64,000 nt of DNA from Botryllus schlosseri (GCA_051294905.1 CM119372.1:21082001-21146000); one strand, 5' to 3'. Positions 24,462 to 63,251 are shown, numbered from the stretch's first letter. The notes: generated by a model from the sequence alone, not told the origin. Translations and numbers: made by a program.

Positions 24462-24752
24462 CAGTGGTTCTCAACCTTTTTTTAGACACGCCCCCCTTTA
24501 TGATAGTGAAAAATTTCGCGCCCCCCTTATCGTCATATCACAAAATCCAACCGGGATGCTAGCAACCCCAACAGACTGTTTGATGGCATGGAAGGTTATG
24601 ACTGTTGATGAGAGAATTCAAAAATATGAAATTCAGTCTCTATATAGAGAAACACTCGTGAACTGGAGGTAAATCGCGCAGAGCGCGAAAAAAAATTTCA
24701 GTTGACCGCTTCTTCGCGCCCCCCTTCAGATGCTTTCACGCCCCCCAGGTTG
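24462..24752. mobile_element. hAT-type MITE (CAGTGGTTCTCAACC family), right end eroded
   Basis: Same family as 53938-54213, which matches in inverted orientation over most of its length. Confidence 0.7.
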
Positions 24753-39238: not shown

Positions 39239-42097
39239 CAGACTGCGTAGGTCGAATTTCGCAGTTGCGGTTATATGCGATTGTGAATTGATAATGTGGT
39301 ATTGATCAAGGCTCGATTGCTCACCCGTACGTCGAGCACATATATTCTACCTCTCAATGCTGCTCGCTACGTTTGCAGATAATGGGAGTAAATCTAGCAA
39401 GCAAGCCGTTGCAAGCTATGGCGACGTAACCATGTGCTTTCGATCGAAGTTCGATTGATCGCTCGACGCAATACACCTCGAGGTCGGCGCACGTGGGTGT
39501 CAACTGACCAGCAATCTTTCGTTGATGATGACGCTGTAGCTACCCACAAATATCATGTTAAATGACGTCCCACGGTGTGCGTCGGCCGTTATTTAAAAGT
39601 CTAGTATTATTAGGACTTGGCGACGTTGGACAGCGTTGGCGCAAATTCCAGCCACCGCGAAATGTAGAACAGGTTCCTAGTGCACACCACTTGAATGCGA
39701 AACATCCATATTAAATGGGTAAAGCAAGGAAGTAGAGCGTACTGAAAAACATACCAATTTTGGTATCCGACTGTGCCAGCGTAATTGTCAGAGCGATGAT
39801 ATCACTTCTCTAGTACATTCCGAGATTCCCGCGCTGTAAGACGAGTACTTAGCGCTGAGTACACTTCCGGACCGGTATGATATTGCATGGCTTGATGAAT
39901 CGTTGGGTGCATTGCACAACAGCTGCGTTGTCGAATATTCCTTACCGATCTTGACCAGTCTAATTACAAGTCTATGTGCTACTAACCATTATCCTTATGC
40001 TGGATATCGCAGTATAAAAATGTGTCTCGTGATGGAATCCCGGGTGTATGGAGATTGGTAGCGCGTTATGTATCTTGCCGGAATATTTGAGCTGCGCTGG
40101 CATATTTGCTCACCTTATCAGTATGTAACAAAAGTAGGTATTCGTGTTGCGGAAAGACCAACAGCCAGCTTCGTAACGTGTATAGTATGCAATGTGTGTA
40201 TACGTTCGATGCAGTGATGAGATTATCGGCTTTGCCAACAATCTAGATAAATTCTGGTAGGTTTGCTCTTGGGAGATATCAAATCTTCAGTGTGTAATAA
40301 TGGCGTCTTGTGGTAAGCCTTAGCCCTGGTTTAGATTTCTGTAGTTCAGCGTCTCGCCGGTGCGGCTTACATCGGCTTTTGTGCTTTGTTATGCCTATAC
40401 TATACGCTGGCTTGGTCCTGCATTGCGATGTAGGCTAATTGTAAAGTATCTTGGCCCGTTTTACGGCGGGTGCACGAGCCGTTATAATCTCGGTTGAGAG
40501 CATGACCGCTAATATCGATGGAATATCCAATGCGCAGCGCTCCGGTTCAGAGAATGAATATGAATAATCTCAACTCTTCACTGTCGAGTATTGAATAGGA
40601 ACTGAAGCACATTTAAAACCGGTAGGCTTAGCTAAATTGCAACGTCCGTGGCATTTCGAATGAACTAGTTCTAAGTATAGGGACAACAATGCGTAATACG
40701 TATCTGCATTATCACCGTGCGTCCGACCGTAGAATATATGAGAATGTAACAGCCAAAGCGTTCGTTGCGTGGAATGTCGTTGCAGCGCGGTTTTTCGTTG
40801 GGAATTGTCTCGTCGTAGCTGGGAAATCATGTCATTACGCTTTTAGTGTATAATTAGTTGATTACCATACTTTTTACCGTATATATATTCCGTACTGATG
40901 TTTTACACTTAGGTTAAGCTCGTTATAATTCGTGTCGAGTCCTTATGGTATGTATGAATCGGGTGCTACTTGATGAAATTGAGGGGCGTCGCAGGGGGCG
41001 TGACTTTAAAGCTCTCGATGGCGTTTCGAAAATTCTCTTTCGTTAATTGCGAGCATTACGACTATGCATACCATAAACTTATGGATACAACCGTTACCTT
41101 CACCACACCGACCTAAGATCTTTTGAATTCCGTCTCTGAAAATGGTGCCGCTCACGGTAATGCGCGTGCCGCGTTGTTCGTGTCGAAGGGCGTTGTCAGG
41201 GGGTGTGGCCTACGGGAGTTCACGTATATCGCAGCGAAGTTACTCCCCTTCTAATTACGAGATGTATAGTATTCCGATGTGTGAACTACATCCAGTTCAA
41301 TTGTCACGTGTTTCGCCGATTGGCGAGTGTGTAATAGTTGAGTGTACCGAGAGTTTGCAGCAGCGCTTGAGCGAGCATGATGACAGTAATTTCGTCACTA
41401 AGTGAAATGAATGAACTGAGATTGAGGGTTACTCCCTGAGTTGTGAATAAAGCGGTAGTTTACATATTAGTGTAGGTGGCGCTTTCAACATGTCACACAC
41501 TTTCAGTTTAGGAATATCGTATGGCATATTACAGATTCCTGTAGGCCCATATTGAGATAATTCTGACTAATGTTGGCGTGAAGTATTGCTGAGAAGAAAA
41601 GATACAATTACAAAGGGTAGAATTGAGCCTCTGCCTCAGTATTGAAATTTTCTATAAATAGAATTCTATGTCACATGTTATTCTATTACTATCTGAAATA
41701 TTCGGTAGCCCTTTATTCTTTTTTATGTAGTCATTTGTGGTCAAGGATAGATCTTGCATCAAGAGTGTGATTAATCAAAAGATTTTTGAACAGTAGCATC
41801 CTGTTTTCCTGTTGCTATCGTAAAGATAGGCATAGGCCTGCTTTTTATTGTTGTTGCTCGTTATATGCAAGTTATTGCTGTTGTAAAACTTCATCAACTG
41901 GTTAACATGCGGTAATCTTAGAAGAACACATAGGCCTATAGCTTTCACTTTCTGTGTTTCCTCAAACTGTGATACATTCCTACTTTGATATATGAAACTA
42001 CATAAGATAGAGGGAGGGGATGAAAGATGAAAAAATTGGTCGTTCTGCTGTGCTAGTTCTGTAATCGTTACCATCCTGGTTTCTGAATAATTCAGTC

Positions 42098-42117
42098 TAC
42101 TAACTACTTGTTTTCAG
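42098..42117 (+). promoter_or_regulatory. Branch point TACTAAC and 3' splice acceptor TTGTTTTCAG upstream of the PTEN coding exon
   Basis: Consensus branch point 42098-42104 and AG at 42116-42117, 70 nt before the ATG. Confidence 0.75.
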
Positions 42118-42186
42118 ATCCATAGCCAAATTGTCAGTTATACATATTTTTCTTGTAACAATTGGAAATTGGGCCAAGGATCCCTG

Positions 42187-43416
42187 ATGTCAAGTACCAT
42201 AAAGTCTATGGTCAGTAAACAGAAAAGGCGGTACAAAGAAGATGGTTTTGATCTCGATTTAACATACATATGCCCAAACATCTTGGCCATGGGATTTCCC
42301 GCTGAGAAAGTGGAGGGACTATACAGAAACAACATTGACGATGTCGTAGAGTTTCTGGATTCGAAGCACGGAGAACATTACAAAGTGTACAATCTCTGCT
42401 CAGAGAGAACGTACGATCCAGATAAGTTCCAACAACGTGTCGCCGTGTTTCCGTTTGATGACCACAACCCTCCAAAGTTTGAATTAATCAAGCCGTTTTG
42501 TGTCGACATGGACAGCTGGCTGGGGAAGGATAAAAAGAACATAGCTGCTGTACACTGCAAAGCTGGCAAAGGCCGCACTGGAGTGATGATTTGTTGCTAC
42601 TTGCTGCATAGGAAAAAATTCACGAAAGCCAGCGAGGCTCTGAAATTTTACGGACAGGCCCGTACGATGAACGAAAAAGGTGTCACCATACCTTCCCAGA
42701 GACGATATGTAGAGTATTATTCCGAAATGATTTCGAAAAATCTTGTGTACAGACCAGAGACGCTACTACTACACAGCATACGTTTCGAAACGTTACCCTA
42801 TTTAGGTACCTTGAACCCGTTTTTTGTTATTAGTCAACTCAAGGTGAAGGTTTACACTTCACGCGCCAACATCGTTAACAAATCGATGGAAGGCTCGTTA
42901 ACCTTTGACCTTGTGAATCCCTTCCCGCTTTGCGGCGACATGAAAGTGGAGTTTTTTAACCGCAAACAGGTGGTCGGGAAGGACAAATTGTTCCATTTCT
43001 GGTTCAACACGTTTTTTGTAGCTGCCATGCGAAGCACGCCCGGAGCGTACGCAATAAGAGACGCCAGCTCTTATTATTCTTGCGGGCACTTGCCGACAGC
43101 GAAAAACATGCTCACTCTGACCATTCCCAAAAGCGAGCTCGACAAGGCGAACAAAGACCGGTCAAATAAAATTTTTTCTCCCAATTTCAAAGTCAGCCTG
43201 ATCTTCAGCCGGACGGATTCCAACGGCAAAGGCTCTAAAAGGGGGTCGAACCCAGCGCGGGCATCGCGAATCCCTCACAGTCAATCGACGCTTAGCGTCG
43301 ATGGTATATCCACGCACTCAGCGTCTGACCACGAGGAACTGACCGATGACGCGTCATTAAGTGATACTGACCCAGAGGACGAATGGGATCACGAAAGCGA
43401 CAGCACTGACCTGTAG
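42187..43416 (+). CDS. PTEN: Phosphatidylinositol 3,4,5-trisphosphate 3-phosphatase PTEN (409 aa, single coding exon)
   Basis: N-terminal [33 protein letters not shown] loop, catalytic [20 protein letters not shown]2 domain ([35 protein letters not shown]), acidic Ser/Thr tail ending in -TDL. The ATG at 42187 is preferred over the TTG at 42169. Confidence 0.98.
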
Positions 43417-46966: not shown

Positions 46967-47019
46967 CAATGGTAGTAGTGTAGTATATCGCACAACCGGT
47001 GGCAGAGGTTCTTATGGGC

Positions 47020-47595
47020 GGGGTGGTGACTCGTATTGAAACCCGGGGTGGTGACTCGTACTTTCAGACCCCCCTTGTGGTGGTGAGTCGTAATGGGTTC
47101 TTATGGACGCGGTCGTGATTCGTACTTTCGGGTATAGGCTGCGGCGGTGACTCGTATTGAAAACCGTCGTGGTCGTGATTCGTACTTTTGGGTATAGGCT
47201 GTGGCGGTAACTCGTATTGAAAACTCGGGGTCGTGATTCGTACTTTTTGCTATAGGTGGTGGCGGTGATTCGCCTGTCATGTATTCTTACAGGGTCTCTA
47301 CTGATTCACCATGTGTTCTTACGGGCGTGTGTTCGTGAGTCGTATTTTCAGGTATAGGCTGCGTTGGTGATTCGTACTTTTGGGTATAGGCGGCAGCGGC
47401 ATACTAACGTGAAACTCGTGGTGGCATGCTAATGTTTTTAGGTATACGCGCGGCGACATGCTAACGACGATAATGTGTCTGTCATGTATTCTTACAGGGT
47501 CTCTGCTGATTCACCATGTGTTCTTATGGGTGCGGTCGTGAATCGTACTTTTAGGTATAGACATCTCTCGCATATCATACTTTCGGGTATAGGCA
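47020..47595. repeat. Subterminal motif array (GTGA(C/T)TCGTA(C/T)TT, GGGTATAGGC), mirrored at ~61365-61945
   Basis: More than ten iterations of GTGAYTCGTA, plus a ~50-bp duplication (47274-47322 / 47478-47527). Confidence 0.85.
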
Positions 47596-50500
47596 TCACT
47601 AAACAGGAAATTCACTAATCCGCAGTGCATTGTGCGATTTTGAAAACCAGATGTTGACGGTTGTATTTTGGATCTGTGTGACCCACTAAATACGTCCGTT
47701 TTGGAAATTCGGAGCGCGCACTATCGTATCGATTATTCCACTAATCCAGTCGGTGCTATTACATTCAGCAGTATTCAGTATTCAGCAGCGACACGAAAAG
47801 CAAGCAACAAATAACCGCGCTCGTAAATTAACACTTCAAAAAGTGTAAAATAGATTGCAAATCCCGCGATCGCTAACAAGATAATGTCTCGGACATAACC
47901 ATTTTTAGTGACTTGGTGTTAAAGACATACCGATCACTCACAAGGTAATATTTCGGTAATTAGTCTACCACAGAGCCGGCGTAGACGGTGATTCGAAAAC
48001 CAACAATTTGACACTTTCTGGTGGTCGCTATATGTTTTGACACTTCGAACAGTGGCTGACTTTAGTTGCGTGATAAGAATTATGAGAATATTCAATCAAT
48101 GTATCAATTTGCCAACTCGAAATGAAACTTACTACACAAACCAAGTTGATTCGTATCTGAATGTGTTAATTCGGTACAATTCTAATAGTTTTGAGAAATC
48201 TTTTCGTGATCTTTTGACTCGACCATAACCCGAATATTACTGACGCCGACTTTCAGCCACATCGAATTATTCGCACATTCCGCGCCGCTGTTTTCACACT
48301 TATAGAATCAATACCAACTATAATTCTACAAGAATCAAGAATCACAAGTATGTGCATTATACAGTTATTGTCTTTATCAACATGAAATCGAACTCTTAAT
48401 AAAAACACGCATGTTATCACTCGTCAACTCTATCATGAAAATCCTCGAGTCCTTATCATCAAAAATGTTATAGCGCGGCGTCGGAATCCATTCGTGGGAT
48501 GTACTAAAGGTAAATCCAGATAATCCAAAATGAAATATTTGGACTTTGACATAGTCTGAATTGAAATATATTGACAAACATGACTACCAACTTTGATCCA
48601 GTCACATTTCAAGATCATACTTTGAAACAATCCTTGAAACTTACAACTCTATTCGCGACTGAGTTTTCCTTTTATCAGTTTCAGTAAATACTATCGCGAT
48701 ATTTTAATGTGTTACTACACACAATAGAATCAATCAATGAAATAACACCTGTTGTAAATATTTCTAACTTGACAACCACTTGTGCATACCGCGATCGACT
48801 TGTGATGCGATGAGTTAAATCGGAATATTTCAATCTATTTGTCGAAACCTTGAACAAACTATCAGGTTATTTTTTGTTGCAATCGAGTGAACGGAAATAG
48901 TATTACGTCTCAACATTTCAACATCTTCCCATACACAAAAGAGTAAAATACAAAAAACCTTGTCAAGTCAATCCGTTTGTAACTTACCAAACCAAAACAA
49001 AAAGTATCCTTACGAAAAGTAGACAAGACTACGCAAGTAATCACTACAACCAACAAACATATCAAGTTCGGTTTTAGGTATATACCACCAATTCGTCTTA
49101 TTCGAATGTCAGCAACTCTTTACGGTCATAGTTACAACCACATAAACTAATTTACCCTGCCCACACGTCATGATCATTCCTGAAATCAACACAAACTCGA
49201 CCACTGACTTGAGTTAACCACAAAACTGCATCAAGTTTTTAATCCACTTGTAGCTGACAGATTATTCGAATACATCGATGGAGAATATTATTGAACTCGT
49301 CGGTATTGTTACTTCAACAAATTACACCGACTGCGAAAGTTAATATCGAATGGTAAGACTTGATCACATATTTGTTGAACACAGACATGACAAAGAACAT
49401 GATCGGGATTTTATAAACTATTACTTTTCCCATCTATCAATATCAGAATACAAGTCATCAAACTTTTTGTTAAATGTAACATAGCACTTTTGGAATCGGA
49501 TTCGTTATAGTCGTACAAATTGTATTAAACCCAACATCAAAACAAAAGGACTTTTTTAGTTCATTGAAATCAAATCATTCGTCTTCGACTTGTGCTTTTT
49601 TTAAATTGCCCGCGACAATTCGTTTCGAGTGAGTTGTAACCAAAGTCAAGATATCTTTGTGTCCACAGATATGGAAGATGAATATAGCTAACACAATCAC
49701 GAATCGACGTTTCAGAGTATTTCACAGATGTAATAAACTTGTTAGTGTCACCTATCTAAAAGTACGCACGCGTTCGATTTCCATACCGACTGTTGCGATG
49801 TTTAGGATTCACTTACAATAACCACGGGTGAGGATTTAACATCAACGTCGTTACTGGTGGTATTCACAACAGAGAATCGAAACATTACACAGTGTGAAAA
49901 TATATCTTTGATATCAAAGCATTATCCCAAGTACACGATTAATAGTCAACTCCGTTCACACTTTCTATAGAACGTGCTAAATGTAAAATATCACGAGGTT
50001 GCACTCTAAGACTTTGATCATTACAAAAGTAAATTGGAATATGTTTGCTGGATGCATTCAATTCAGCTAGAAATGTCTAGTGCACAACAATCGTAATATC
50101 AAGGAAGTACTTGCTATCACTAAACGTGTTTTGTATCGTTGTTCATTTGTAGTATTGATTGTTTTTGAACCCTAAAATAATAATTCCCGACATGAAACCA
50201 AGCCGCTGAAAGTCGTTACCATAACAAAGAAACAATTTGTACGATGTTTGGCAAATGTGTCCTATAGTTAGGTGTACTAGAATTATTTGTGTAACACATA
50301 CACCGACAATGCAATCGAATTTTTTTCCGTTGTCATTCGCTAAAGTAAATGTCATCACAATACTCTGTCACTAAAAGACGTTACTCGGACGTGCTTGAAT
50401 TCTAGGCATAGTTCTGATTTACCCAACACAAGACCCAAGGACAACCCTAGTTTCAGTCGAACACAGATATCCAAAATATCGCACACTTCGCGCAAACACC

Positions 50501-52077
50501 CGATACAAAATATTACTTGTGTTGTTGCGGTATCATCTTCACAATATCACACAATACGAATGATGGTTATATGTAACATGCGACCGACTTGAATCACACC
50601 CACCTGAAGGAAGAGGATTTACTCAATCTTTACAAAATGGATATTGACCAACATCACATCGCCGGATTGTATCTGTTTTGCTGGATACGAGTTATGTTAG
50701 TTTAACAGTAAACAAATTTCACCCTCTTGGATTATGAACTCAATGCGTTAGCAGTCATTCAATATTTTGTTTGTGTCAACTAGTTACTTGGTATGTTACT
50801 CCACAACTCTTACAAAAGTACGAAGGATATTAACATCACACTAAGTAATTAACTTTACTCGATATTCTCGCATTACGAAACTAAAGAATGGTTGGTTAGA
50901 CTCTATAAACTGTTTCGATATCACAAGACCTTTATTGTCTGAATGGGTGTTCACGTATCTTAATAATCAAATAGTTCAACACAGAACTAGTACTAACAGA
51001 AACATCAGAGTTGTTTACACAAAAGTTTGTATGTGTACAGTATGCGAATACCATGTGTAAGTCTAGCACAATTGCGGTATCCATCCGAGTTTAGTTAGTT
51101 AACACAAATTTATTACAACGGACCCACGTAAACTTTCGTGAAAGAAAAGCATACTCACTTCCGGATGGTTCTATCAATGCCATAACAATAAATCAGCTAC
51201 TCCAACAAAAGAGTACATATGTTTTCTAGTCGCGGTCCCTAAATCATACACACGAAACAATCTACTTTTGCTAACGAAAAGTGCTGAGTTATCACATAAT
51301 CACCCTCACAACAAAACAGCTAGTAGATATTATCATTCAAAATATTCCTAACCCTTTACACACCAGTGACAAATCATACAACGAATACACACCAGTGACA
51401 AATCATACAACGAATATGTTTTGTGGGTCGAATTGTTGTTCAGTGTCAAGTCTACCTGTTGAAACTTACATTAAAACAAGTCTACCTGTTGAAACTTACA
51501 TTAAAACAACACAGTCACAATTCAATTAAAACAACGAATCTATTTTCATTTCCTCACAAACAGAAAAATAAATTTTCTTTCCCCAACACATACTTGTAAC
51601 CAATCGCTTTCATTAAACACACAACTTCATAAAAGTATTTACTTTCTCCAACATAGACATTCCGATGTAGTCAAGAAATATTTTCATTAATCAAAATCTT
51701 CGACTTCTGTTTACGGTGTTAGTGTGTGCATGTCATACACGTGGGGCCCGTATTAAAATGGACACGACACAACTGAATGTAAGGAGATAGAAGTCTATCG
51801 CACAGATTTACATGCGGTCTTCGCTACGGTTTCAAAAAAAAAACGAATCATCTCTTTTGCATTGATCTAGACCGAGCAAGTTAGTTAATGGCCATGATTG
51901 TGTTTGTCATATGCGAATGATAGGGTTACTGTCAAATCTACATACAACAACCTTCTGGCACTCATAATAGCAATTTCATTCTCTCCCTTTGTAATTGTAG
52001 ACTCACGACAAGTATATTGTACAACTCGACAGCTACGTTTAACAACACCAACGACACTAAACATACGATACCTACCC

Positions 52078-52640
52078 AAGTAAAATTACCATTTTCACCT
52101 GGAGGTCAGTCGTTACCTGAGTAAAAACACCATTATTCTTTGGAGATTTAATCAGAGTAACAAAACATTTTCACTTGGGGGTCTATCGTTTCCAAGAGTA
52201 ACAAACCCCCTTTCCTTTGGAAATCTATTTTTCCCTGGGTAACAAACCTTTTTCACTTGCAAATATATTTCCCCCCCCGGGTAACAAACCTTTTTTCGCT
52301 TGGAAATATATTTTTTCCTTGAGCAACAGATCATTTTTACTTGGAAATATATTTTTTCCTTGAGCAACAGACCATTTTTACTTGGAAATATATTTTTCCC
52401 AGAGCAACAAACCATTTCACTCGGCGGGTCGTCGTTTACCCATTGTAACAAACCATTTTCACTTGGAAAAATACTTTTACCTAGAGTAACTAATCATTTT
52501 CTTTTGGAAATATATTTTCTCCCTGGGTAACAAATCCTTTTCGCTTGGAAAACTGTCATTTACCTGAGTACCAATACCGTTTTCACTTGGAAATCTATCT
52601 TTTCCCTAGGTAATAATACCATTTTCGTTTTGAAAACTGA
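52078..52640. repeat. ~41-bp degenerate tandem array, ~14 units (left arm)
   Basis: Consensus AACAAACCATTTTCACTTGGAAATATATTTTTCCCTGGGT recurring every 40-42 nt. Confidence 0.9.
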
Positions 52641-53399
52641 CAACCACACCGGACAATTTGATATTTTTGTATATTGTTTCAAGAGACGGTGACAAAATAT
52701 GCACCAACAACGACTCCATTCATTTGTGTAATCAAATATTCAGTCGCTCTGATGCATCCCATCAAAATCATTGGTTACTCGCATGCAATAACAATGTGCT
52801 GTTGTACATCGATATGTATGTTTTGGAAATTTGACAATAGGTTTCGATATGTAAGTGATGTTCGGGTTCGTGCTTTGGATTTTCCAGAGTCAAAATGTCT
52901 GAATAAAACACCTCCTCGACTTTGGTACACGGATAATGGCGTTCGGAAAGCGGATGAATTTATGTTCTCCATCGCCCTAACAACTCCGGGTTATTTGCGA
53001 GTTTCCTCGGGTCTGTTTACTATATTGTGTCTTTACTGGTCAATACATGTCGCTCCAGTCAGCTGAAACCGGATCACTAATCTGAGAAAGTGTGTTGACC
53101 GGATCCGGATATTCACTCATGAACCAACGACCAATATTCAAGTAAACATGTTACAGCCCGTGTTTTGTCTCCATGGAAAATACCAATGCATACACCATCA
53201 CACCAAGTACGTCACGATTGTTCACAAGTATTCGCGTAAACGAGGTGTACATACAATGTGTCGGTGTACAAACATCATGGAAAACAAATTCATGTTCTCA
53301 AGTATCATCATGCGACGACTCTGCACATTCAATGTGGGCATAGATGACACACGACATGATACAATGGACAGTGCATTATGCATACCGATATATTCTCAG

Positions 53400-53750
53400 T
53401 CAAATATGCGAACCATGTACTATCATGCATCCCGATTTTCGCTGAATATCCACAACACCAACAAATCTGTACATTTCTTTTCCCTCAACCTTGACGATAG
53501 AGTTGTCCTCCCAATGTACCAATCGAGTGTATGGTTCATCAGGTGTAAAATCCAAATCAAACGTCACCAAGGTATCGTTTTTCATTTTCAATATTTCCAC
53601 CACTGCGTCTTGTCTGTGTCGTAAAACCACGGTGTGAGGCCAGAGGAATCTATGGACAGTTACGCGTAGTCCATCCATGTCCGTGTCAGGTAGCGACAAC
53701 GTTTTCTCAATGGGCTGTGTGGGTACAACGTTTCAATAGGTAGCTGGATC
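53400..53750 (-). pseudogene. Decayed coding sequence of unknown family in the fold-back spacer
   Basis: The ~100-codon open stretch (SLPDTDMDGLRVTVHRFLWPH...) has protein-like composition. Upstream it is broken by a stop codon and the hAT insertion. Confidence 0.35.
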
Positions 53751-53758
53751 AACTAGAC

Positions 53759-54853
53759 CAGGGGTGGGCAAACTACGGCCCGCGGGCCGCATGCGGCCCG
53801 CCACACCGTTCTGTGCGGCCCGCGAGAGTCTAAAGAAACTTATTTTAAATATTGATAAAATTCGCACTAAAAATCGAATTAATGAAGGGACTTCATTAAA
53901 CTTTTTCTTAGTATATTTCACCATGATAATTCGAAGACAGTGGTTCTAAAACTGGGGTACGCCCTCCCTCCACTGAAAATTTTTTTCGCGCTTCGCGCGA
54001 TTCTCATTCACGTCATGATTATTGCTCTGTATTTAGTCTCAATTTCATATTTAAAAATTCCTCATCCACATTCGTAACCATCCGTGCCATCAAACTATTT
54101 GTTAGGTTGCTAGCACCCTATAGTTGCGTTTTGTTATATGACGATAAGGTTGGCCCAAAATTTTTCACCATCACAAGGGGGGGAGCGTGTCTCAAAAAAT
54201 TTGAAAGCCACTGTTATGAGGTAAATACTTCCTTACTTTAGGAATAATTTCTGGCGCGACAGCCCGATCTCAAGGCGCACGCAGTTTGAAAGGTTTCAAC
54301 TATATCACAGAAATCCTAAACGAGATTGACATTATTCGGATGACGAGTGGGATTTCATATTGGCCACTTCATTGCAGTTTTAATTATTTCAGTGATGTGC
54401 TTATAGAAACGATTTGCGCGTGTCTTAGGTAGATTCGTTCTCTGTATGCGTAGAATTGGGGTGTTAATATTTTATCTACACATCGCAGATGCGTGTTTGA
54501 AGCTAACATGGTTATGATGTGTCCTGGAACTGAGCCAAAAGTGGAATTAGTAATTCTATGAACGGATCACTGCTCATAGATTTAAATTGCAATCCTGTTC
54601 TAAGAATCGGGACAAACGGCTTTCATCTCTATAATTTTGACAAATTGGTTATTGAGGTCGACCAGCCTCTGAAATCTCGCCACTATGTTTCTGACGTGTG
54701 TACGATATCATCAAAGCAATGTGTTTTTTTTTAAATAGGAACATATAGAATCTCCATGTCCTCGCCATATAATCTCAGTTTTATACAATGCGGCCCGCGA
54801 ATGGATTTAGATGTTGAATGCGGCCCGCGAGCTCAAAAGTTTGCCCACCCCTG
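53759..54853. mobile_element. hAT-type MITE (CAGGGGTGGGCAAACT family) in the fold-back spacer
   Basis: Perfect TIR CAGGGGTGGGCAAACT, GCGGCCCGC subterminal motifs, perfect 8-bp TSD AACTAGAC (53751-53758 and 54854-54861). Confidence 0.95.
53938..54213. mobile_element. Small MITE nested in the 53759-54853 element
   Basis: Ends CAGTGGTTCT...AAAGCCACTG. Homologous to 24462-24752. TSD not recognisable. Confidence 0.65.
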
Positions 54854-55416
54854 AACTAGACCAAAAGTTTCCAACCGCGATTTATGTTGACCTGTCGAGT
54901 TACGAGATAGCACCCTCTTGCGGTGTGATTAACACGAAATCAGCCTTCAGCTCGCAGAGACACACCCTGGATTACATTATCTAATCGTAATCGAACTCTA
55001 GATTCACACACACACAGAGTCCCTGTTTACGATTTCAATCCGGAATCACTGCTCACGATGTTTAGCTGGAGTCGTTATGTGGGAGTAGCGACATCCGACA
55101 TATTCATCGCGTGAAAGATTGATAACGATGGTAATCGCCAAATACATGAAACCAGGTGAAGTACTGCGGTCTCAGCGAAAAAGTTAGCAGGTTATGACCA
55201 ACGATACGCAGGGGTTGAGTGAGTTACGCAACCCGATTATGTCGAGGTCTGGATCACGATGCAAGTCTACATGAGAATCCGAACAATCTTGCAAAATCAA
55301 GGTGTGAACCCGTGAAAGGATTGTACTCGTGTGAGATTAATTTTTCACAAGTTGGGTGGAGGCGGTTCATACTAAGATCGTGTTACGTCCAATTACGGCT
55401 GCTTGTCTGTCCCCAA

Positions 55417-58400
55417 GTCATCTATGCCCACATTGAATGTACAGAGTCGTCGCATGATGATACTTGAGAACATGAATTTGTTTTCCATGATGTTTGTACA
55501 CCGACACATTGTATGTACACCTCGTTTACGCGAATACTTGTGAACAATCGTGACGTACTTGGTGTGATGGTGTATGCATTGGTATTTTCCATGGAGACAA
55601 AACACGGGCTGTAACATGTTTACTTGAATATTGGTCGTTGGTTCATGAGTGAATATCCGGATCCGGTCAACACACTTTCTCAGATTAGTGATCCGGTTTC
55701 AGCTGACTGGAGCGACATGTATTGACCAGTAAAGACACAATATAGTAAACAGACCCGAGGAAACTCGCAAATAACCCGGAGTTGTTAGGGCGATGGAGAA
55801 CATAAATTCATCCGCTTTCCGAACGCCATTATCCGTGTACCAAAGTCGAGGAGGTGTTTTATTCAGACATTTTGACTCTGGAAAATCCAAAGCACGAACC
55901 CGAACATCACTTACATATCGAAACCTATTGTCAAATTTCCAAAACATACATATCGATGTACAACAGCACATTGTTATTGCATGCGAGTAACCAATGATTT
56001 TGATGGGATGCATCAGAGCGACTGAATATTTGATTACACAAATGAATGGAGTCGTTGTTGGTGCATATTTTGTCACCGTCTCTTGTAACAATATACAAAA
56101 ATATCAAATTGTCCGGTGTGGTTGTCAGTTTTCAAAACGAAAATGGTATTATTACCTAGGGAAAAGATAGATTTCCAAGTGAAAACGGTATTGGTACTCA
56201 GGTAAATGACAGTTTTCCAAGCGAAAAGGATTTGTTACCCAGGGAGAAAATATATTTCCAAAAGAAAATGATTAGTTACTCTAGGTAAAAGTATTTTTCC
56301 AAGTGAAAATGGTTTGTTAGTATGGGTAAACGCCAGATCTCCAAAGGAAAATGATATTTTTACTCAGGTAAACGGTGGATCGTAAAGTGAAAATGGTTTG
56401 TTGCTCAGGGAAAAAGGTTTGTTACCCGGGGAAAAAATATCTTTCCAAGTGAAAAAGGTTTGTTACCCAGGGAAAAGATAGATTTCCAAGTGAAAACGGT
56501 ATTGGTACTCAGGTAAACGACAGATTTCCAAGTGAAAATGTATTGTTACAATGGGTAAACGCCGGATCTCTAAAGGAAAATGATATTTTTACTCAGGTAA
56601 ACGACGACCCGCCGCGTGAAATGGTTTGTTCCTCTGGGAAAAAATATATTTCCAAGTAAAAATGGTCTGTTGCTCAAGGAAAAAATATATTTCCAAGTAA
56701 AAATGATCTGTTGCTCAAGGAAAAAATATATTTCCAAGCGAAAAAAGGTTTGTTACCCAGGGAAAAATAGATTTCCAAAGGAAAGGGGGTTTGTTACTCT
56801 TGGAAACGATAGACCCCCAAGTGAAAATGTTTTGTTACTCTGATTAAACGATAAATCTCCAAAGAATAATGGTGTTTTTACTCAGGTAACGACTGACCTC
56901 CAGGTGAAAATGGTAATTTTACTTGGGTAGGTATCGTATGTTTAGTGTCGTTGGTGTTGTTAAACGTAGCTGTCGAGTTGTACAATATACTTGTCGTGAG
57001 TCTACAATTACAAAGGGAGAGAATGAAATTGCTATTATGAGTGCCAGAAGGTTGTTGTATGTAGATTTGACAGTAACCCTATCATTCGCATATGACAAAC
57101 ACAATCATGGCCATTAACTAACTTGCTCGGTCTAGATCAATGCAAAAGAGATGATTCGTTTTTTTTTGAAACCGTAGCGAAGACCGCATGTAAATCTGTG
57201 CGATAGACTTCTATCTCCTTACATTCAGTTGTGTCGTGTCCATTTTAATACGGGCCCCACGTGTATGACATGCACACACTAACACCGTAAACAGAAGTCG
57301 AAGATTTTGATTAATAAAAATATTTCTTGACTACATCGGAATGTCTATGTTGGAGAAAGTAAATACTTTTATGAAGTTGTGTGTTTAATGAAAGCGATTG
57401 GTTACAAGTATGTGTTGGGGAAAGAAAATTTATTTTTCTGTTTGTGAGGAAATGAAAATAGATTCGTGGTTTTAATTGAATTGTGACTGTGTTGTTTTAA
57501 TGTAAGTTTCAACAGGTAGACTTGACACTGAACAACAATTCGACCCACAAAACATATTCGTTGTATGATTTGTCACTGGTGTGTAAAGGGTTAGGAATAT
57601 TTTGAATGATAATATCTACTAGCTGTTTTGTTGTGAGGGTGATTATGTGATAACTCAGCACTTTTCGTTAGCAAAAGTAGATTGTTTCGTGTGTATGATT
57701 TAGGGACCGCGACTAGAAAACATATATACTCTTTTGTTGGAGTAGCTGATTTATTGTTATGGCATTGATAGAACCATCCGGAAGTGAGTATGCTTTTCTT
57801 TCACGAAAGTTTACGTGGGTCCGTTGTAATAAATTTGTGTTAACTAACTAAACTCGGATGGATACCGCAATTGTGCTAGACTTACACATGGTATTCGCAT
57901 ACTGTACACATACAAACTTTTGTGTAAACAACTCTGATGTTTCTGTTAGTACTAGTTCTGTGTTGAACTATTTGATTATTAAGATACATGAACACCCATT
58001 CAGACAATAAAGGTCTTGTGATATCGAAACAGTTTATAGAGTCTAACCAACCATTCTTTAGTTTCGTAATGCGAGAATATCGAGTAAAGTTAATTACTTA
58101 GTGTGATGTTAATATCCTTCGTACTTTTGTAAGAGTTGTGGAGTAACATACCAAGTAACTAGTTGACACAAACAAAATATTGAATGACTGCTAACGCATT
58201 GAGTTCATAATCCATGAGGGTGAAATTTGTTTACTGTTAAACTAACATAACTCGTATCCAGCAAAACAGATACAATCCGGCGATGTGATGTTGGTCAATA
58301 TCCATTTTGTAAAGATTGAGTAAATCCTCTTCCGTCAGGTGGGTGTGATTCAAGTCGGTCGCATGTTACACATAACCATCATTCGTATTGTGTGATATTG

Positions 58401-61400
58401 TGAAGATGATACCGCAACAACACAACAAGTAATATTTTGTATCGGGTGTTTGCGCGAAGGGTGCGATATTTTGGATATCTGTGTTCGACTGAAACTAGGG
58501 TTGTCCTTGGGTCTTGTGTTGGGTAAATCAGAACTATGCCTAGAATTCAAGCACGTCCGAGTAACGTCTTTTAGTGACAGAGTATTGTGATGACATTTAC
58601 TTTAGCGAATGACAACGGAAAAAAATTCGATTGCATTGTCGGTGTATGTTTTACACAAATAATTCTAGTACACCTAACTATAGGACACATTTGCCAAACA
58701 TCGTACAAATTGTTTCTTTGTTATGGTAACGACTTTCAGCGGCTTGGTTTCATGTCGGGAATTATTATTTTAGGGTTCAAAAACAATCAATACTACAAAT
58801 GAACAACGATACAAAACACGTTTAGTGATAGCAAGTACTTCCTTGATATTACGATTGTTGTGCACTAGACATTTCTAGCTGAATTGAATGCATCCAGCAA
58901 ACATATTCCAATTTACTTTTGTAATGATCAAAGTCTTAGAGTGCAACCTCGTGATATTTTACATTTAGCACGTTCTATAGAAAGTGTGAACGGAGTTGAC
59001 TATTAATCGTGTACTTGGGATAATGCTTTGATATCAAAGATATATTTTCACAAAGATATATTTTCACACTGTGTAATGTTTCGATTCTCTGTTGTGAATA
59101 CCACCAGTAACGACGTTGATGTTAAATCCTCACCCGTGGTTATTGTAAGTGAATCCTAAACATCGCAACAGTCGGTATGGAAATCGAACGCGTGCGATCT
59201 TTTAGATAGGTGACACTAACAAGTTTATTACATCTGTGAAATACTCTGAAACGTCGATTCGTGATTGTGTTAGCTATATTCATCTTCCATATCTGTGGAC
59301 ACAAAGATATCTTGACTTTGGTTACAACTCACTCGAAACGAATTGTCGCGGGCAATCTAAAAAAGCACAAGTCGAAGACGAATGATTTGATTTCAATGAA
59401 CTAAAAAAGTCCTTTTGTTTTGATGTTGGGTTTAATACAATTTGTACGACTATAACGAATCCGATTCCAAAAGTGCTATGTTACATTTAACAAAAAGTTT
59501 GATGACTTGTATTCTGATATTGATAGATGGGAAAAGTAATAGTTTATAAAATCCCGATCATGTTCTTTGTCATGTCTGTGTTCAACAAATATGTGATCAA
59601 GTCTTACCATTCGATATTAACTTTCGCAGTCGGTGTAATTTGTTGAAGTAACAATACCGACGAGTTCAATAATATTCTCCATCGATGTATTCGAATAATC
59701 TGTCAGCTACAAGTGGATTAAAAACTTGATGCAGTTTTGTGGTTAACTCAAGTCAGTGGTCGAGTTTGTGTTGATTTCAGGAATGATCATGACGTGTGGG
59801 CAGGGTAAATTAGTTTATGTGGTTGTAACTATGACCGTAAAGAGTTGCTGACATTCGAATAAGACGAATTGGTGGTATATACCTAAAACCGAACTTGATA
59901 TGTTTGTTGGTTGTAGTGATTACTTGCGTAGTCTTGTCTACTTTTCGTAAGGATACTTTTTGTTTTGGTTTGGTAAGTTACAAACGGATTGACTTGACAA
60001 GGTTTTTTGTATTTTACTCTTTTGTGTATGGGAAGATGTTGAAATGTTGAGACGTAATACTATTTCCGTTCACTCGATTGCAACAAAAAATAACCTGATA
60101 GTTTGTTCAAGGTTTCGACAAATAGATTGAAATATTCCGATTTAACTCATCGCGTCACAAGTCGATCGCGGTATGCACAAGTAGTGGTTGTCAAGTTAGA
60201 AATATTTACAACAGGTGTTATTTCATTGATTGATTCTATTGTGTGTAGTAACACATTAAAATATCGCGATAGTATTTACTGAAACTGATAAACGGAAAAC
60301 TCAGTCGCGAATAGAGTTGTAAGTTTCAAGGATTGTTTCAAAGTATGATCTTGAAATGTGACTGGATCAAAGTTGGTAGTCATGTTTGTCAATATATTTC
60401 AATTCAGACTATGTCAAAGTCCAAATATTTCATTTTAGATTATCTGGATTTACCTTTAGTACATCCCACGAATGGATTCCGACGCCGCGCTATAACATTT
60501 TTGATGATAAGGACTCGAGGATTTTCATGATAGAATTGACGAGTGATAACATGCGTGTTTTTGTTAAGAGTTCGATTTCATGTTGATAAAGACAATAACT
60601 GTATAATGCACATACTTGTGATTCTTGATTCTTGTAGAATTATAGTTGGTATTGATTCTATAAGTGTGAAAACAGCGGCGCGGAATGTGCGAATAATTCG
60701 ATGTGGCTGAAAGTCGGCGTCAGTAATATTCGGGTTATGGTCGAGTCAAAAGATCACGAAAAGATTTCTCAAAATTATTAGAATTGTACCGAATTAACAC
60801 ATTCAGATACGAATCAACTTGGTTTGTGTAGTAAGTTTCATTTCGAGTTGGCAAATTGATACATTGATTGAATATTCTCATAATTCTTATCACGCAACTA
60901 AAGTCAGCCACTGTTCGAAGTGTCAAAACATATAGCGACCACCAGAAAGTGTCAAATTGTTGGTTTTCGAATCACCGTCTACGCCGGCTCTGTGGTAAAC
61001 TAATTACCGAAATATTACCTTGTGAGTGATCGGTATGTCTTTAACACCTAGTCACTAAAAATGGTTATGTCCGAGACATTATCTTGTTAGCGATCGCGGG
61101 ATTTGCAATCTATTTTACACTTTTTGAAGTGTTAATTTACGAGCGCGGTTATTTGTTGCTTGCTTTTCGTGTCGCTGCTGAATACTGAATACTGCTGAAT
61201 GTAATAGCACCGACTGGATTAGTGGAATAATCGATACGATAGTGCGCGCTCCGAATTTCCAAAACGGACGTATTTAGTGGGTCACACAGATCCAAAATAC
61301 AACCGTCAACATCTGGTTTTCAAAATCGCACAATGCACTGCGGATTAGTGAATTTCCTGTTTAGTGATGCCTATACCCGAAAGTATGATATGCGAGAGAT

Positions 61401-61987
61401 GTCTATACCTAAAAGTACGATTCACGACCGCACCCATAAGAACACATGGTGAATCAGCAGAGACCCTGTAAGAATACATGACAGACACATTATCGTCGTT
61501 AGCATGTCGCTGCGCGTATACCTAAAAACATTAGCATGCCACCACGAGTTTCACGTTAGTATGCCGCTGCCGCCTATACCCAAAAGTACGAATCACCAAC
61601 GCAGCCTATACCTGAAAATACGACTCACGAACACACGCCCGTAAGAACACATGGTGAATCAGTAGAGACCCTGTAAGAATACATGACAGGCGAATCACCG
61701 CCACCACCTATAGCAAAAAGTACGAATCACGACCCCGAGTTTTCAATACGAGTTACCGCCACAGCCTATACCCAAAAGTACGAATCACGACCACGAGTTT
61801 TCAATACGAGTCACCGCCGCAGCCTATACCCGAAAGTACGAATCACGACCGCGTCCATAAGAACCCATTACGACTCACCACCACAAGGGGGGTCTGAAAG
61901 TACGAGTCACCACCCCGGGTTTCAATACGAGTCACCACCCCGCCCATAAGAACCCCTGCCACCGGTTGTGCGATCTACTACACTACT
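55417..61987 (-). repeat. Right arm of giant inverted repeat (6571 bp)
   Basis: Begins GTCATCTATGCCCACATTG at 55417, matching ...GGGCATAGATGAC ending at 53348. Confidence 0.98.
56125..56925. repeat. ~41-bp degenerate tandem array, ~19-20 units (right arm)
   Basis: Inverted copy of 52078-52640 with extra units at ~56320-56600. Confidence 0.9.
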
Positions 61988-63251
61988 AGTGGTTCCCAAC
62001 CTTTTTCGACTCATTGCCCCCTTTTCAAACTCCACACCGATCATCGCCCCCCAAATATTGGGAACACAAACATGGGCATGCAGAATGAAATCATCGGCGA
62101 GTTGACTAAGAAAAAGGGTCAACTTTTCGGCTCGACCTCGAAGTTACACTTTTCCAGCTAAATTTTGGTGAGTTGACTAACAAAAAGGTGTTGACTAACA
62201 AAAAGGTGATTTCTCCGACTTTATTCCCAAAGGACCGTAACTTCACTTCGTCAGCCCCCCCCCCCAATACGTTGGTCTTGACCCCCTCTAGAGAACGATA
62301 AAGCAAACTTCTGTACCCCTCAGACCCAACTCCCCGGATACCTCGTTACCGCTACTTCTCAGCACAAATTGTTGGACTCTTTAGTTAGCCGGCTTAATTC
62401 GCGCGAAGCGCGAAAAATTTCTATTATTCATGACTGAATCGGTCAATATGATCGGAAATTGCATAAATATTGCTGTCAATTTTTTATCCTCTCTGCTCAT
62501 GTATTCAGATTTACCGGTAAAGCTGAGTGAGGTGTCTTGGATAATGTAGGGCCCGTAAATAATAATTGAACATATTCGGGCGGACCCGTGGGTATAATGA
62601 CTTCGTTACGTTATGACTTTTCGTGGCCTGTCTGCTATGTCAAAAGATATTCAAATCGCCCATACGTACTAAACTAAAAGACGCACACGATTTCAAATTG
62701 GTATTTCTGCACTGGCAACTACTTTTTCTCGGCGAGATGGCATTTTTTGTGGGGTTCTGATTGGACAGAACAGGAAGATTTGGCGCCAGCCATTTAGGCG
62801 CCTTTGGACAATTAAATATATATGTATATCGTATATATATCGAAGTCGGTCAGCATAAAGGCAGTCCTTTTCCGCCAAGGATTTCTCGTTCTGGCACACT
62901 TCTCGGAGTCGCATGTTACATGGCCTGAAACTTCATATGTCTTGGTGCGTCATGGTGTGATAATGGCTGACGCCGAGATGCCCATTTCTGCACCTCATGC
63001 GTATTATTTCTTGGAGGAAGGGTATCCTATAAGCAAGAAAAATGTGACCACGAAATGGCGTGCAGCGCGAAAAGTTTTTGAAAAAGTGGCAATTGGGGGA
63101 TTGGGTGTGGCAGTTACGGTCATGGACGCCAATATAGCCATTTCAACGCGCCATCGCCCCCCTATCGCCCCCTTCGTCCGTTTTCGACCCCTTGGCTATT
63201 TTCGACCCCTGGACCGACAAATCGCCCACGTTGGGAACCACTGAGTTAACT

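Follow-up and report, generated by a model that had tools for sequence, protein, structure and literature searches.

In the fold-back transposons FB and Galileo the target-site duplication (TSD) measures 9 and 7 bp, respectively, and complete copies carry a P-type or other DDE transposase; long inverted duplications are carried by adenovirus defective particles, and long complex inverted repeats by Tlr1 of Tetrahymena. Polintons, or Mavericks, are defined as encoding a protein-primed family-B polymerase together with a retrovirus-like integrase (PMC5499653), and a 6-bp TSD is given for them as well as for the other 6-bp group named in the same source, IS3EU/GingerRoot, whose ends are TA..TA (occasionally TG..CA) (PMC10045372). 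According to a survey of vertebrate Mavericks, intact elements are 12.7-24.6 kb long and have terminal inverted repeats (TIRs) of 46-1,447 bp, and the mean number of Mavericks per genome is 22; they show a 6-bp TSD and 6-bp end motifs, most commonly 5'-(AGT)2//(ACT)2-3' with (AG)3 as an alternative, and such end repeats are expected to permit jumping-back in protein-primed replication (PMC8097293). For protein-primed replicons such as adenovirus and PRD1 a panhandle model is discussed, in which pairing of the inverted repeats restores homology and for which direct evidence is described as lacking (PMC11886824). Tlr1 elements, which have many genes, were sometimes viewed as non-autonomous polintons and are now taken to be a family of polinton-like viruses (PMC5499653). 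Here we describe an element at positions 46974-61987 of a 64,000-nt stretch of Botryllus schlosseri DNA (GCA_051294905.1 CM119372.1:21082001-21146000; the whole stretch is called the window, and positions are counted from its first letter), which is most likely a member of a large non-autonomous fold-back family derived from Mavericks/Polintons.

A fold-back family in the Botryllus genome

The element is a 15,014-bp insertion with (AGT)2 tips, in which a loop of 2,068 bp separates two inverted arms. A repeat search returned the arms (46973/4-53348 and 55417-61987/8) as a chain of 99-100% complementary blocks, and a global alignment of their 6,375 and 6,571 nt led to 29 substitutions in 6,270 aligned pairs (99.54% identity) and 12 indels, the bulk of the indel length lying in tandem-repeat tracts and the largest indel, 271 nt, in a 41-bp array. 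The arms account for 12,946 of 15,014 nt, confirming the initial annotation of this DNA, which had put about 86% of the element into two near-identical inverted arms. It had also read one common sequence at both ends, and indeed both are AGTAGTGTAGTA[T/G]ATCGCACAACCGGTGGCAG, a sequence that matches the window twice and was never met in 100 shuffles. While the palindrome as such was correctly recognised, it had been overlooked that 1,093 bp of the loop belong to another repeat, a secondary insertion not present in the closest relative (L035/L036). This non-coding repeat of ~1.1 kb gave 4,708 first-look candidates in the genome, with full-length copies 87-100% alike, and a related fragment lies at window positions 24462-24705.

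Insertion took place in the terminus of a host repeat. An uninterrupted copy of that repeat in L033 reads ...CTATAT followed directly by CAGTGGTTCCCAGCC, so that CAGTGGT is part of the host-repeat terminus, as judged from this one comparator copy. In the window CAATGGT stands to the left of the element and AGTGGT recurs on its right, indicating a 6-bp duplication with one later mismatch; the earlier argument that the host repeat should contain AGTGGT once was thus supported by the single intact copy compared. A 6-bp TSD was also found in all ten other copies fetched (see below), giving 11 of 11 with the window element, of which seven are perfect (GGTCAT, GACACT, AGCATG, TACGAC, TCCGTA, GACGTA and TAGTTT) and four have one mismatch.

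These copies were obtained with the terminal 600 bp of the window element as a genome query, the search that had been suggested for finding further members: 88 scored matches resulted from 2,234 first-look candidates, many of them as +/- pairs 11-16 kb apart. All ten of the +/- pairs fetched turned out to be fold-backs, at loci on eight chromosome-scale contigs and each with its own flanks and TSD, and AGTAGT is found at both ends in 11/11 copies. The ten other copies are 11.3-16.4 kb long (modal length of the family ~13-14.5 kb), and their main arm blocks are 98.9-99.97% identical, with short end-proximal blocks down to 93-98%, whereas the ends of different copies are only 76-87% identical to each other. 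When the genome was searched for termini of the strict form AGTAGT-N7-ATCG-N12-22-CTTATGGG, 926 matches were detected on the forward and 909 on the reverse strand, compared to 0/0 for the reversed control. From the sequence matches we put the family at about 900 or more elements with many terminus subfamilies, which at ~13.5 kb per copy would be roughly 2.5% of the 495.5-Mb assembly by our own estimate; 11 copies plus one partial copy, out of these ~900, were read. Instead of the single defective product assumed initially, a diversified family of ~900 or more members was found, and all copies examined are fold-backs.

The arms are mosaic, with interior segments 90-94% identical to some copies and tips and loop-proximal parts at 72-76%. 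Among the elements on contig C1 there is wide variation in the heptamer that follows AGTAGT and in the 20 nt that follow ATCG, and in about 24 of 35 terminus pairs on this contig, by our reading, the 45-46-nt ends are identical within the pair, so that each of the many subfamilies is matched internally. The variation of the tip heptamer is of an AGT/TA slippage type, with both ends of a pair matching. Three of the ten fetched copies (C12:17195890-17207146, C14:22444499-22456723 and C12:6536607-6550184) are without the centre and the gene in the loop described below, and from their sequences they look like centre-deletion derivatives; in two of them the apparent loop is leftover inner arm, i.e. 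the deletions are asymmetric at the palindrome centre. Between the termini of a 32-kb pair (L051), the central part contained arm-like DNA and other repeats but no gene.

No open reading frame (ORF) of at least 150 aa was present outside the terminal repeat tracts in the ten other copies, and none of 66 ORFs of at least 50 aa in one arm and the loop of the window element exceeded a Pfam cut-off (best E 0.007, as expected by chance for 66 queries). Likewise, tblastn with eight ORF translations of a Maverick from the same genome gave no match to the window or to any of the fold-back loci. The initial statement that no Maverick gene can be recognised therefore stands, and what it had missed is a conserved 92-aa ORF in the loop.

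Coding Mavericks and their ends

A search of the genome for the Pox_A32 ATPase led to one match, and the surrounding 10 kb contain Maverick genes. These include the ATPase (38.6 bits) and an integrase whose rve and Chromo domains score 48.1 and 39.9 bits, respectively, all over cut-off, as well as capsid-sized ORFs and a polymerase in three ORFs of 431, 556 and 347 aa with one in-frame stop and one frameshift; the assignment of these three to a family-B polymerase is our own reading of conserved motifs, made without a database match. With one polymerase ORF as genome query, 78 matches among 261 candidates were scored, falling into classes of 92-100%, 66-68%, 62-64% and 37-38% identity to the query, most of them in open frames of >1,200 aa. 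Judged from such matches, helper functions are plentiful in this genome. A genome search with PF03175 (protein-primed polymerase) found nothing, a false negative, as the polymerase ORFs of the genome's own Maverick do not match this model at E <=0.01; PF00770 (adenovirus protease) also gave nothing in a genome search that had no positive control.

A relaxed tip pattern, AGTAGT-N7-ATCG, gave 1,708/1,701 matches, with a control that was also high (551/553). Among these matches is a +/- pair at C1:5923771 and C1:5942033, 18,263 bp apart and with the same 17-mer on both sides, and this interval encloses a polymerase match of lineage D. Genome-wide, 36+37 exact matches of this 17-mer were counted (control 0). 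A candidate for the autonomous partner that the initial annotation had recommended looking for is thus one polymerase-bearing Maverick, C1:5923771-5942033 (ends L055/L056, of which 400 bp each were examined). It has a perfect 6-bp TSD, GCCGAG, and its 17-nt tip, of the form AGTAGT...GATCG, is identical to the right end of the window element. The similarity to fold-back ends reaches well beyond the tip, as positions 1-355 of the C1 Maverick align to 1-334 of L045 (67.5%), 11-232 to L049 (73.9%, E 7e-35), 153-318 to L041 (87.3%) and 216-344 to L035 (89.2%). When both C1 Maverick ends and five fold-back ends were aligned, the mean column identity was 82% over 255 columns, and the tip is followed in the same order by the spacer and some seven units of the subterminal repeat. 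The cores of these units in the left arm of the window element start at 47026, 47051, 47115, 47147, 47175, 47233 and 47367. The proposal of Polinton/Maverick-type ends, previously based on the short tip and the TSD, is therefore strengthened by ~350 nt of homology to the TIR of a coding Maverick. The ends of the C1 Maverick are not matched by the 32-nt terminus of the window element when up to 3 mismatches are allowed; the homology lies with other fold-back subfamilies and with the repeat array. A Maverick-type 45-mer terminus (<=3 mismatches) was found at nine sites in the genome, where it delimits the coding element of 18.3 kb as well as others of ~13.9, 15.1, 7.8 and 19.5 kb.

For lineage A, GTGACTACT was considered as the Maverick tip and rejected, since other copies have constant sequence before that site, which is therefore internal, and the copy on C11 is truncated; the idea of a non-AG tip for this lineage was dropped along with it. 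The likeness of GTGACTACT to the fold-back repeat (13/17) was reached by 8 of 300 shuffles and is a lead only, and an earlier candidate for the tip, at L053:2509, is internal as well. The lineage-A Maverick has a Death-domain ORF (L053:2016-2414, +; 41.4 bits) and an ORF with a BIR/IAP domain (L053:3784-4224, -; 41.9 bits), both between the TIR and the polymerase gene and together spanning C11:4507015-4509223. Because sister copies match through this stretch, the two are element-borne candidate apoptosis modulators. Directly next to the C11 Maverick, on its truncated left side, lies an abundant repeat of ~1.35 kb (L053:66-1440, C11:4505065-4506439; 3,431 candidates), which includes tandem clusters on contigs C12 and C16.

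The loop gene

Of 11 elements, eight have the 92-aa ORF, and in six of these it is uninterrupted. Between two deep clades (the window element and L035 versus the rest) the ratio of nonsynonymous to synonymous divergence (dN/dS) is 0.16-0.41 at a synonymous distance (dS) of 0.8-1.7, while inside the shallow clade values of 0.4-2.2 are scattered about 1, as expected because copies decay after insertion. In a frame control the corresponding ratio of proportions (pN/pS) was 0.44 in frame, compared to 0.70 and 1.37 in the shifted frames, and differences at codon positions 1, 2 and 3 amounted to 27, 15 and 42. On these substitution patterns we regard the loop ORF as a real gene under purifying selection.

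A genome-wide search with the loop gene gave 1,197 candidates, and all 150 scored matches span residues 1-89 or more. Among the latter, 99 are without a stop and 51 have one TGA, which may be the natural stop shifted forward by two codons, a position it also has in the window and in L051; the longest open frame containing the gene is 153 aa. A back-translated motif of the most conserved decapeptide matched 461+393 sites (854) at a control of 0. Its exact matches fall inside terminus pairs, mostly near the centre, in 18 of the 35 C1 pairs, with a 19th added by the loop-gene search; no exact match lies inside the C1 Maverick (C1:5923771-5942033). Inverted pairs of loop genes only 0.7-2.3 kb apart were also observed, at C1:12460609(+)/12461306(-) and C10:12100851(-)/12103119(+). 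In some family members the gene may thus be located inside the repeated arms instead of the unique loop.

The loop protein belongs to no Pfam family. Its relatives among 5.8 billion proteins are two orphans of ~90 aa, and a profile search of 1.84 billion representatives added one more orphan; a WD40 protein from the profile search (E 2e-5) is regarded as a repeat artefact. An AlphaFold model is all-beta with nine strands (pLDDT 73.7). Foldseek against PDB and viral structures led to nothing at E <=0.001, with a weak likeness to sandwiches of the alpha-crystallin/CS type at E 0.02 or worse, and a wide VIA fold search had the same type of sandwich as best hit at Z 5.1, below the background of the tool; the best value in an Atlas structure search was 0.87, to unnamed clusters. 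A profile of the loop protein reached at best E 0.51 against the Maverick ORFs. Metagenome contigs gave no match, and one match on a viral contig, a single short stretch inside a 335-aa phage-like ORF, was judged spurious. No RNA data set was listed as containing the loop, and in two raw RNA runs the depth was <1 over the loop ORF and modest over parts of the arm and the secondary insertion, which is uninformative on expression. A single-cell RNA run showed a depth of 6-16 on window positions 48320-48887 and 52580-53147, on opposite mate strands, with the loop gene nearly silent; most of these arm reads fit only partly and may come from other copies or chimeric transcripts. Our guess for the function is that the protein favours the parasite by acting on helper proteins or on those subterminal repeats that are specific to the family.

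The coordinates are collected in Table 1. Elsewhere in the window, positions 42091-43416 (+) hold an intron-free open frame of 441 aa, which we take to resemble a PTEN/TPTE-type phosphatase with a C2 domain.

Table 1. Features of the fold-back element and its insertion site, in window positions
Feature	Position	Strand	Remark
Left TSD copy AATGGT	46968..46973	.	one mismatch to right copy
Left arm	46974..53348	+	6,375 nt, non-coding
Terminus: (AGT)2 tip, variable heptamer, conserved ATCG	46974..47005	+	32-nt end common to right end
Subterminal array, ~30-nt units, core GTGA(C/T)TCGTA	47020..47400	+	colinear with coding-Maverick TIR, core there GCACATCGTA
41-bp tandem array within left arm	52157..52626	+	copy number unequal between arms (271-nt indel)
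Central loop	53349..55416	.	2,068 bp: ~975 bp native and 1,093-bp secondary insertion
Loop gene, 92-aa orphan ORF	53403..53678	-	stop 53400-53402; conserved start and stop; predicted all-beta
Secondary insertion, unrelated abundant ~1.1-kb repeat	53761..54853	.	83 bp upstream of loop-gene ATG
Second loop block kept across clades	55043..55123	.	~83-84% to other copies
Right arm	55417..61987	-	6,571 nt
Right TSD copy AGTGGT	61988..61993	.	
Host repeat, terminus CAGTGGTTCCCAAC... hit by insertion	61988..62787	+	its first 7 nt at 46967-46973

Origin and maintenance of the palindrome

With Mavericks/Polintons the family shares the 6-bp TSD, the (AGT)2 tip, the possession of TIRs, a length in the range (15.0 kb fits 12.7-24.6 kb) and the ~350 nt of terminal homology to a coding member. 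It differs in that genes for the protein-primed polymerase, integrase, ATPase, protease and capsid are missing and one orphan gene of 92 aa is present instead, and in that its inverted repeats of 5-7 kb are far outside the vertebrate range of 46-1,447 bp and its ~900 or more copies compare to a mean of 22 (PMC8097293). Because neither polymerase nor integrase is encoded, the element is not a Polinton in the strict sense but a derivative. Copy-back or snap-back genomes are similar in having one end duplicated and inverted around a unique centre and in the expected dependence on a helper polymerase, but they are transient infection products, whereas the fold-back family is heritable, integrated and diversified and has its own selected gene. 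Tlr1 is likewise Polinton-related without the standard polymerase/integrase pair, but it has many genes, in contrast to the one 92-aa gene of an almost wholly palindromic family. In the literature searched, no palindromic or gene-poor Polinton derivative was found to be described beyond the remark on Tlr1, although Repbase/Dfam entries may exist. The element is most likely a member of a Maverick-derived, non-autonomous family that is palindromic over nearly its whole length and has a small gene of its own.

How such elements would be propagated may be explained with Maverick functions supplied in trans. The integrase of a Maverick (rve and chromodomain) would join the fold-back ends into new sites, and the repeated AGT tip would allow jumping-back initiation by the helper's protein-primed polymerase, so that a linear form of the element would be copied; the AGT repeats of the tip and their slippage-like variation are suggestive of such copying. 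The length of the element, close to that of Mavericks (11-16 kb), may reflect packaging in helper capsids. The palindrome most plausibly arose once, in the ancestor of the family, when a copy-back event (strand switch) would have duplicated one end, inverted, around a unique centre. Since then the arms would have been kept near-identical by intramolecular correction, either through snap-back pairing of displaced single strands in replication or through chromosomal gene conversion between the arms, or both. As the loop gene appears to be under purifying selection across a dS of 0.8-1.7, the palindrome is judged to be old and inherited.

The TSDs bear on the age of the arms. Over 11 pairs, 4 of 66 TSD positions are mismatched, compared to ~0.33 predicted by the summed arm divergence (P ~4e-4 by our own Poisson estimate), and because this excess is not reflected in the arms, they have probably been corrected against each other after insertion. 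With arms homogenised in this way, their near-identity alone is no evidence of a recent copy-back.

Several observations speak against a derivation from Mavericks and against helper-dependent propagation. The link to Mavericks rests on the ends of one coding Maverick, and other lineage-D polymerase loci among the matches listed are without the exact 17-mer. Every subterminal unit read in the C1 Maverick has the core GCACATCGTA or a close variant, whereas the core in the fold-backs is GTGA(C/T)TCGTA, as if a putative binding site had been altered in all units together; if the units bind a protein, the C1 Maverick may not be the helper. No strict fold-back terminus was found within 50 kb of five C1 polymerase loci among the matches listed, no polymerase match within 15 kb of the loop-gene matches listed, and no similarity of the arm interiors to 16 kb of lineage-A Maverick sequence. 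The TSD mismatches could also result from imprecise integration instead of age. Finally, replication as a free linear molecule, packaging and present-day mobility are put forward as proposals only.

An explanation without any replicative or viral stage would be that ordinary chromosomal gene conversion alone keeps the arms identical and that the integrase moves the elements by cut-and-paste. The TSD mismatches in 4 of 11 copies at ~0.5% arm divergence, pointing to homogenisation after insertion, agree with it, as do the three copies without the loop ORF, apparently deleted at the centre in the way typical of palindromes that are unstable in situ. However, ~900 or more copies versus 78 scored polymerase matches (261 candidates) would be hard to reach without copying. 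The mosaic arms fit recombination among co-replicating molecules, although they do not prove it, and the heptamers vary in a slippage-type manner, yet match at both ends, with about 24 of 35 C1 pairs identical over 45-46 nt. We consider gene conversion as the sole process unlikely.

Fold-back transposons typically have long inverted arms and, in them, tandem repeats close to the ends, and the family might be an independent cut-and-paste transposon of the FB, Galileo or IS3EU/GingerRoot type, with rare copies encoding a DDE transposase and with ends resembling those of Mavericks by coincidence or convergence. Such autonomous copies could have been missed in reading 11 copies and one partial of ~900. 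FB and Galileo (P superfamily) resemble the family in their very long inverted arms, which contain tandem repeats, and in a centre that is small or missing, whereas the family differs in the 6-bp TSD, in ends homologous to a Maverick TIR and in the lack of a transposase ORF in the copies read. IS3EU/GingerRoot elements likewise have a 6-bp TSD (PMC10045372), but the termini in the family are AG...CT in 11/11 copies and not TA..TA. Convergence at the tip would not account for ~350 terminal nt of colinear homology to a TIR whose Maverick bears a polymerase. Moreover, 0 of 66 window ORFs exceeded the Pfam cut-off, ten copies had no ORF of at least 150 aa outside repeat tracts, and the loop gene was never in a frame of >153 aa among 150 scored matches. 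An independent transposon is thus very unlikely.

A recent one-off copy-back genome, formed in one round of Maverick replication and with arm identity as a sign of youth, would fit the 99.54% identity of the arms, and panhandle or strand-switch products are discussed for protein-primed replicons, with direct evidence described as lacking there (PMC11886824). It is very improbable in view of the same architecture and central gene in copies with ends only 76-87% alike, a family of ~900 or more copies with many terminus subfamilies, a loop gene selected across a synonymous distance of 0.8-1.7, and an excess of TSD mismatches over the prediction from the arms. Assemblies are known to go wrong at long palindromes, but one arm duplicated by a mis-join is practically excluded by the recurrence of the architecture at 10/10 independent loci on eight chromosome-scale contigs with their own flanks and TSDs, by the 29 substitutions and 12 indels between the arms and by the independent repeat insertion in the loop.

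Going beyond a Maverick-derived fold-back family, one may tentatively think of a satellite of Maverick viruses, that is, a stable palindromic mini-genome kept close to the helper genome in length, copied by the helper polymerase, packaged by helper capsids and equipped with a private recognition system. The 92-aa protein and the family-specific GTGA(C/T)TCGTA repeats, as opposed to GCACATCGTA, would then serve to divert the helper machinery. We regard this as a possible, though doubtful, extension.

Mavericks/Polintons are thought to be integrated viruses, and their replication and particles have hardly been observed. In Botryllus, palindromic derivatives outnumber the presumed helpers about tenfold, and they are of the kind expected as a by-product of replicating linear protein-primed genomes, so that the family offers a handle on how Mavericks copy and move DNA. 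It is also a natural experiment on how long inverted repeats stay identical, and the two related but distinct subterminal repeat motifs form a clean pair for finding the protein that reads them. If the satellite reading is true, the abundance of the family would be indirect evidence that Mavericks in a chordate relative replicate and spread in the manner of viruses, and the arms may in addition be a source of small RNAs, made from hairpins and directed against the helper.

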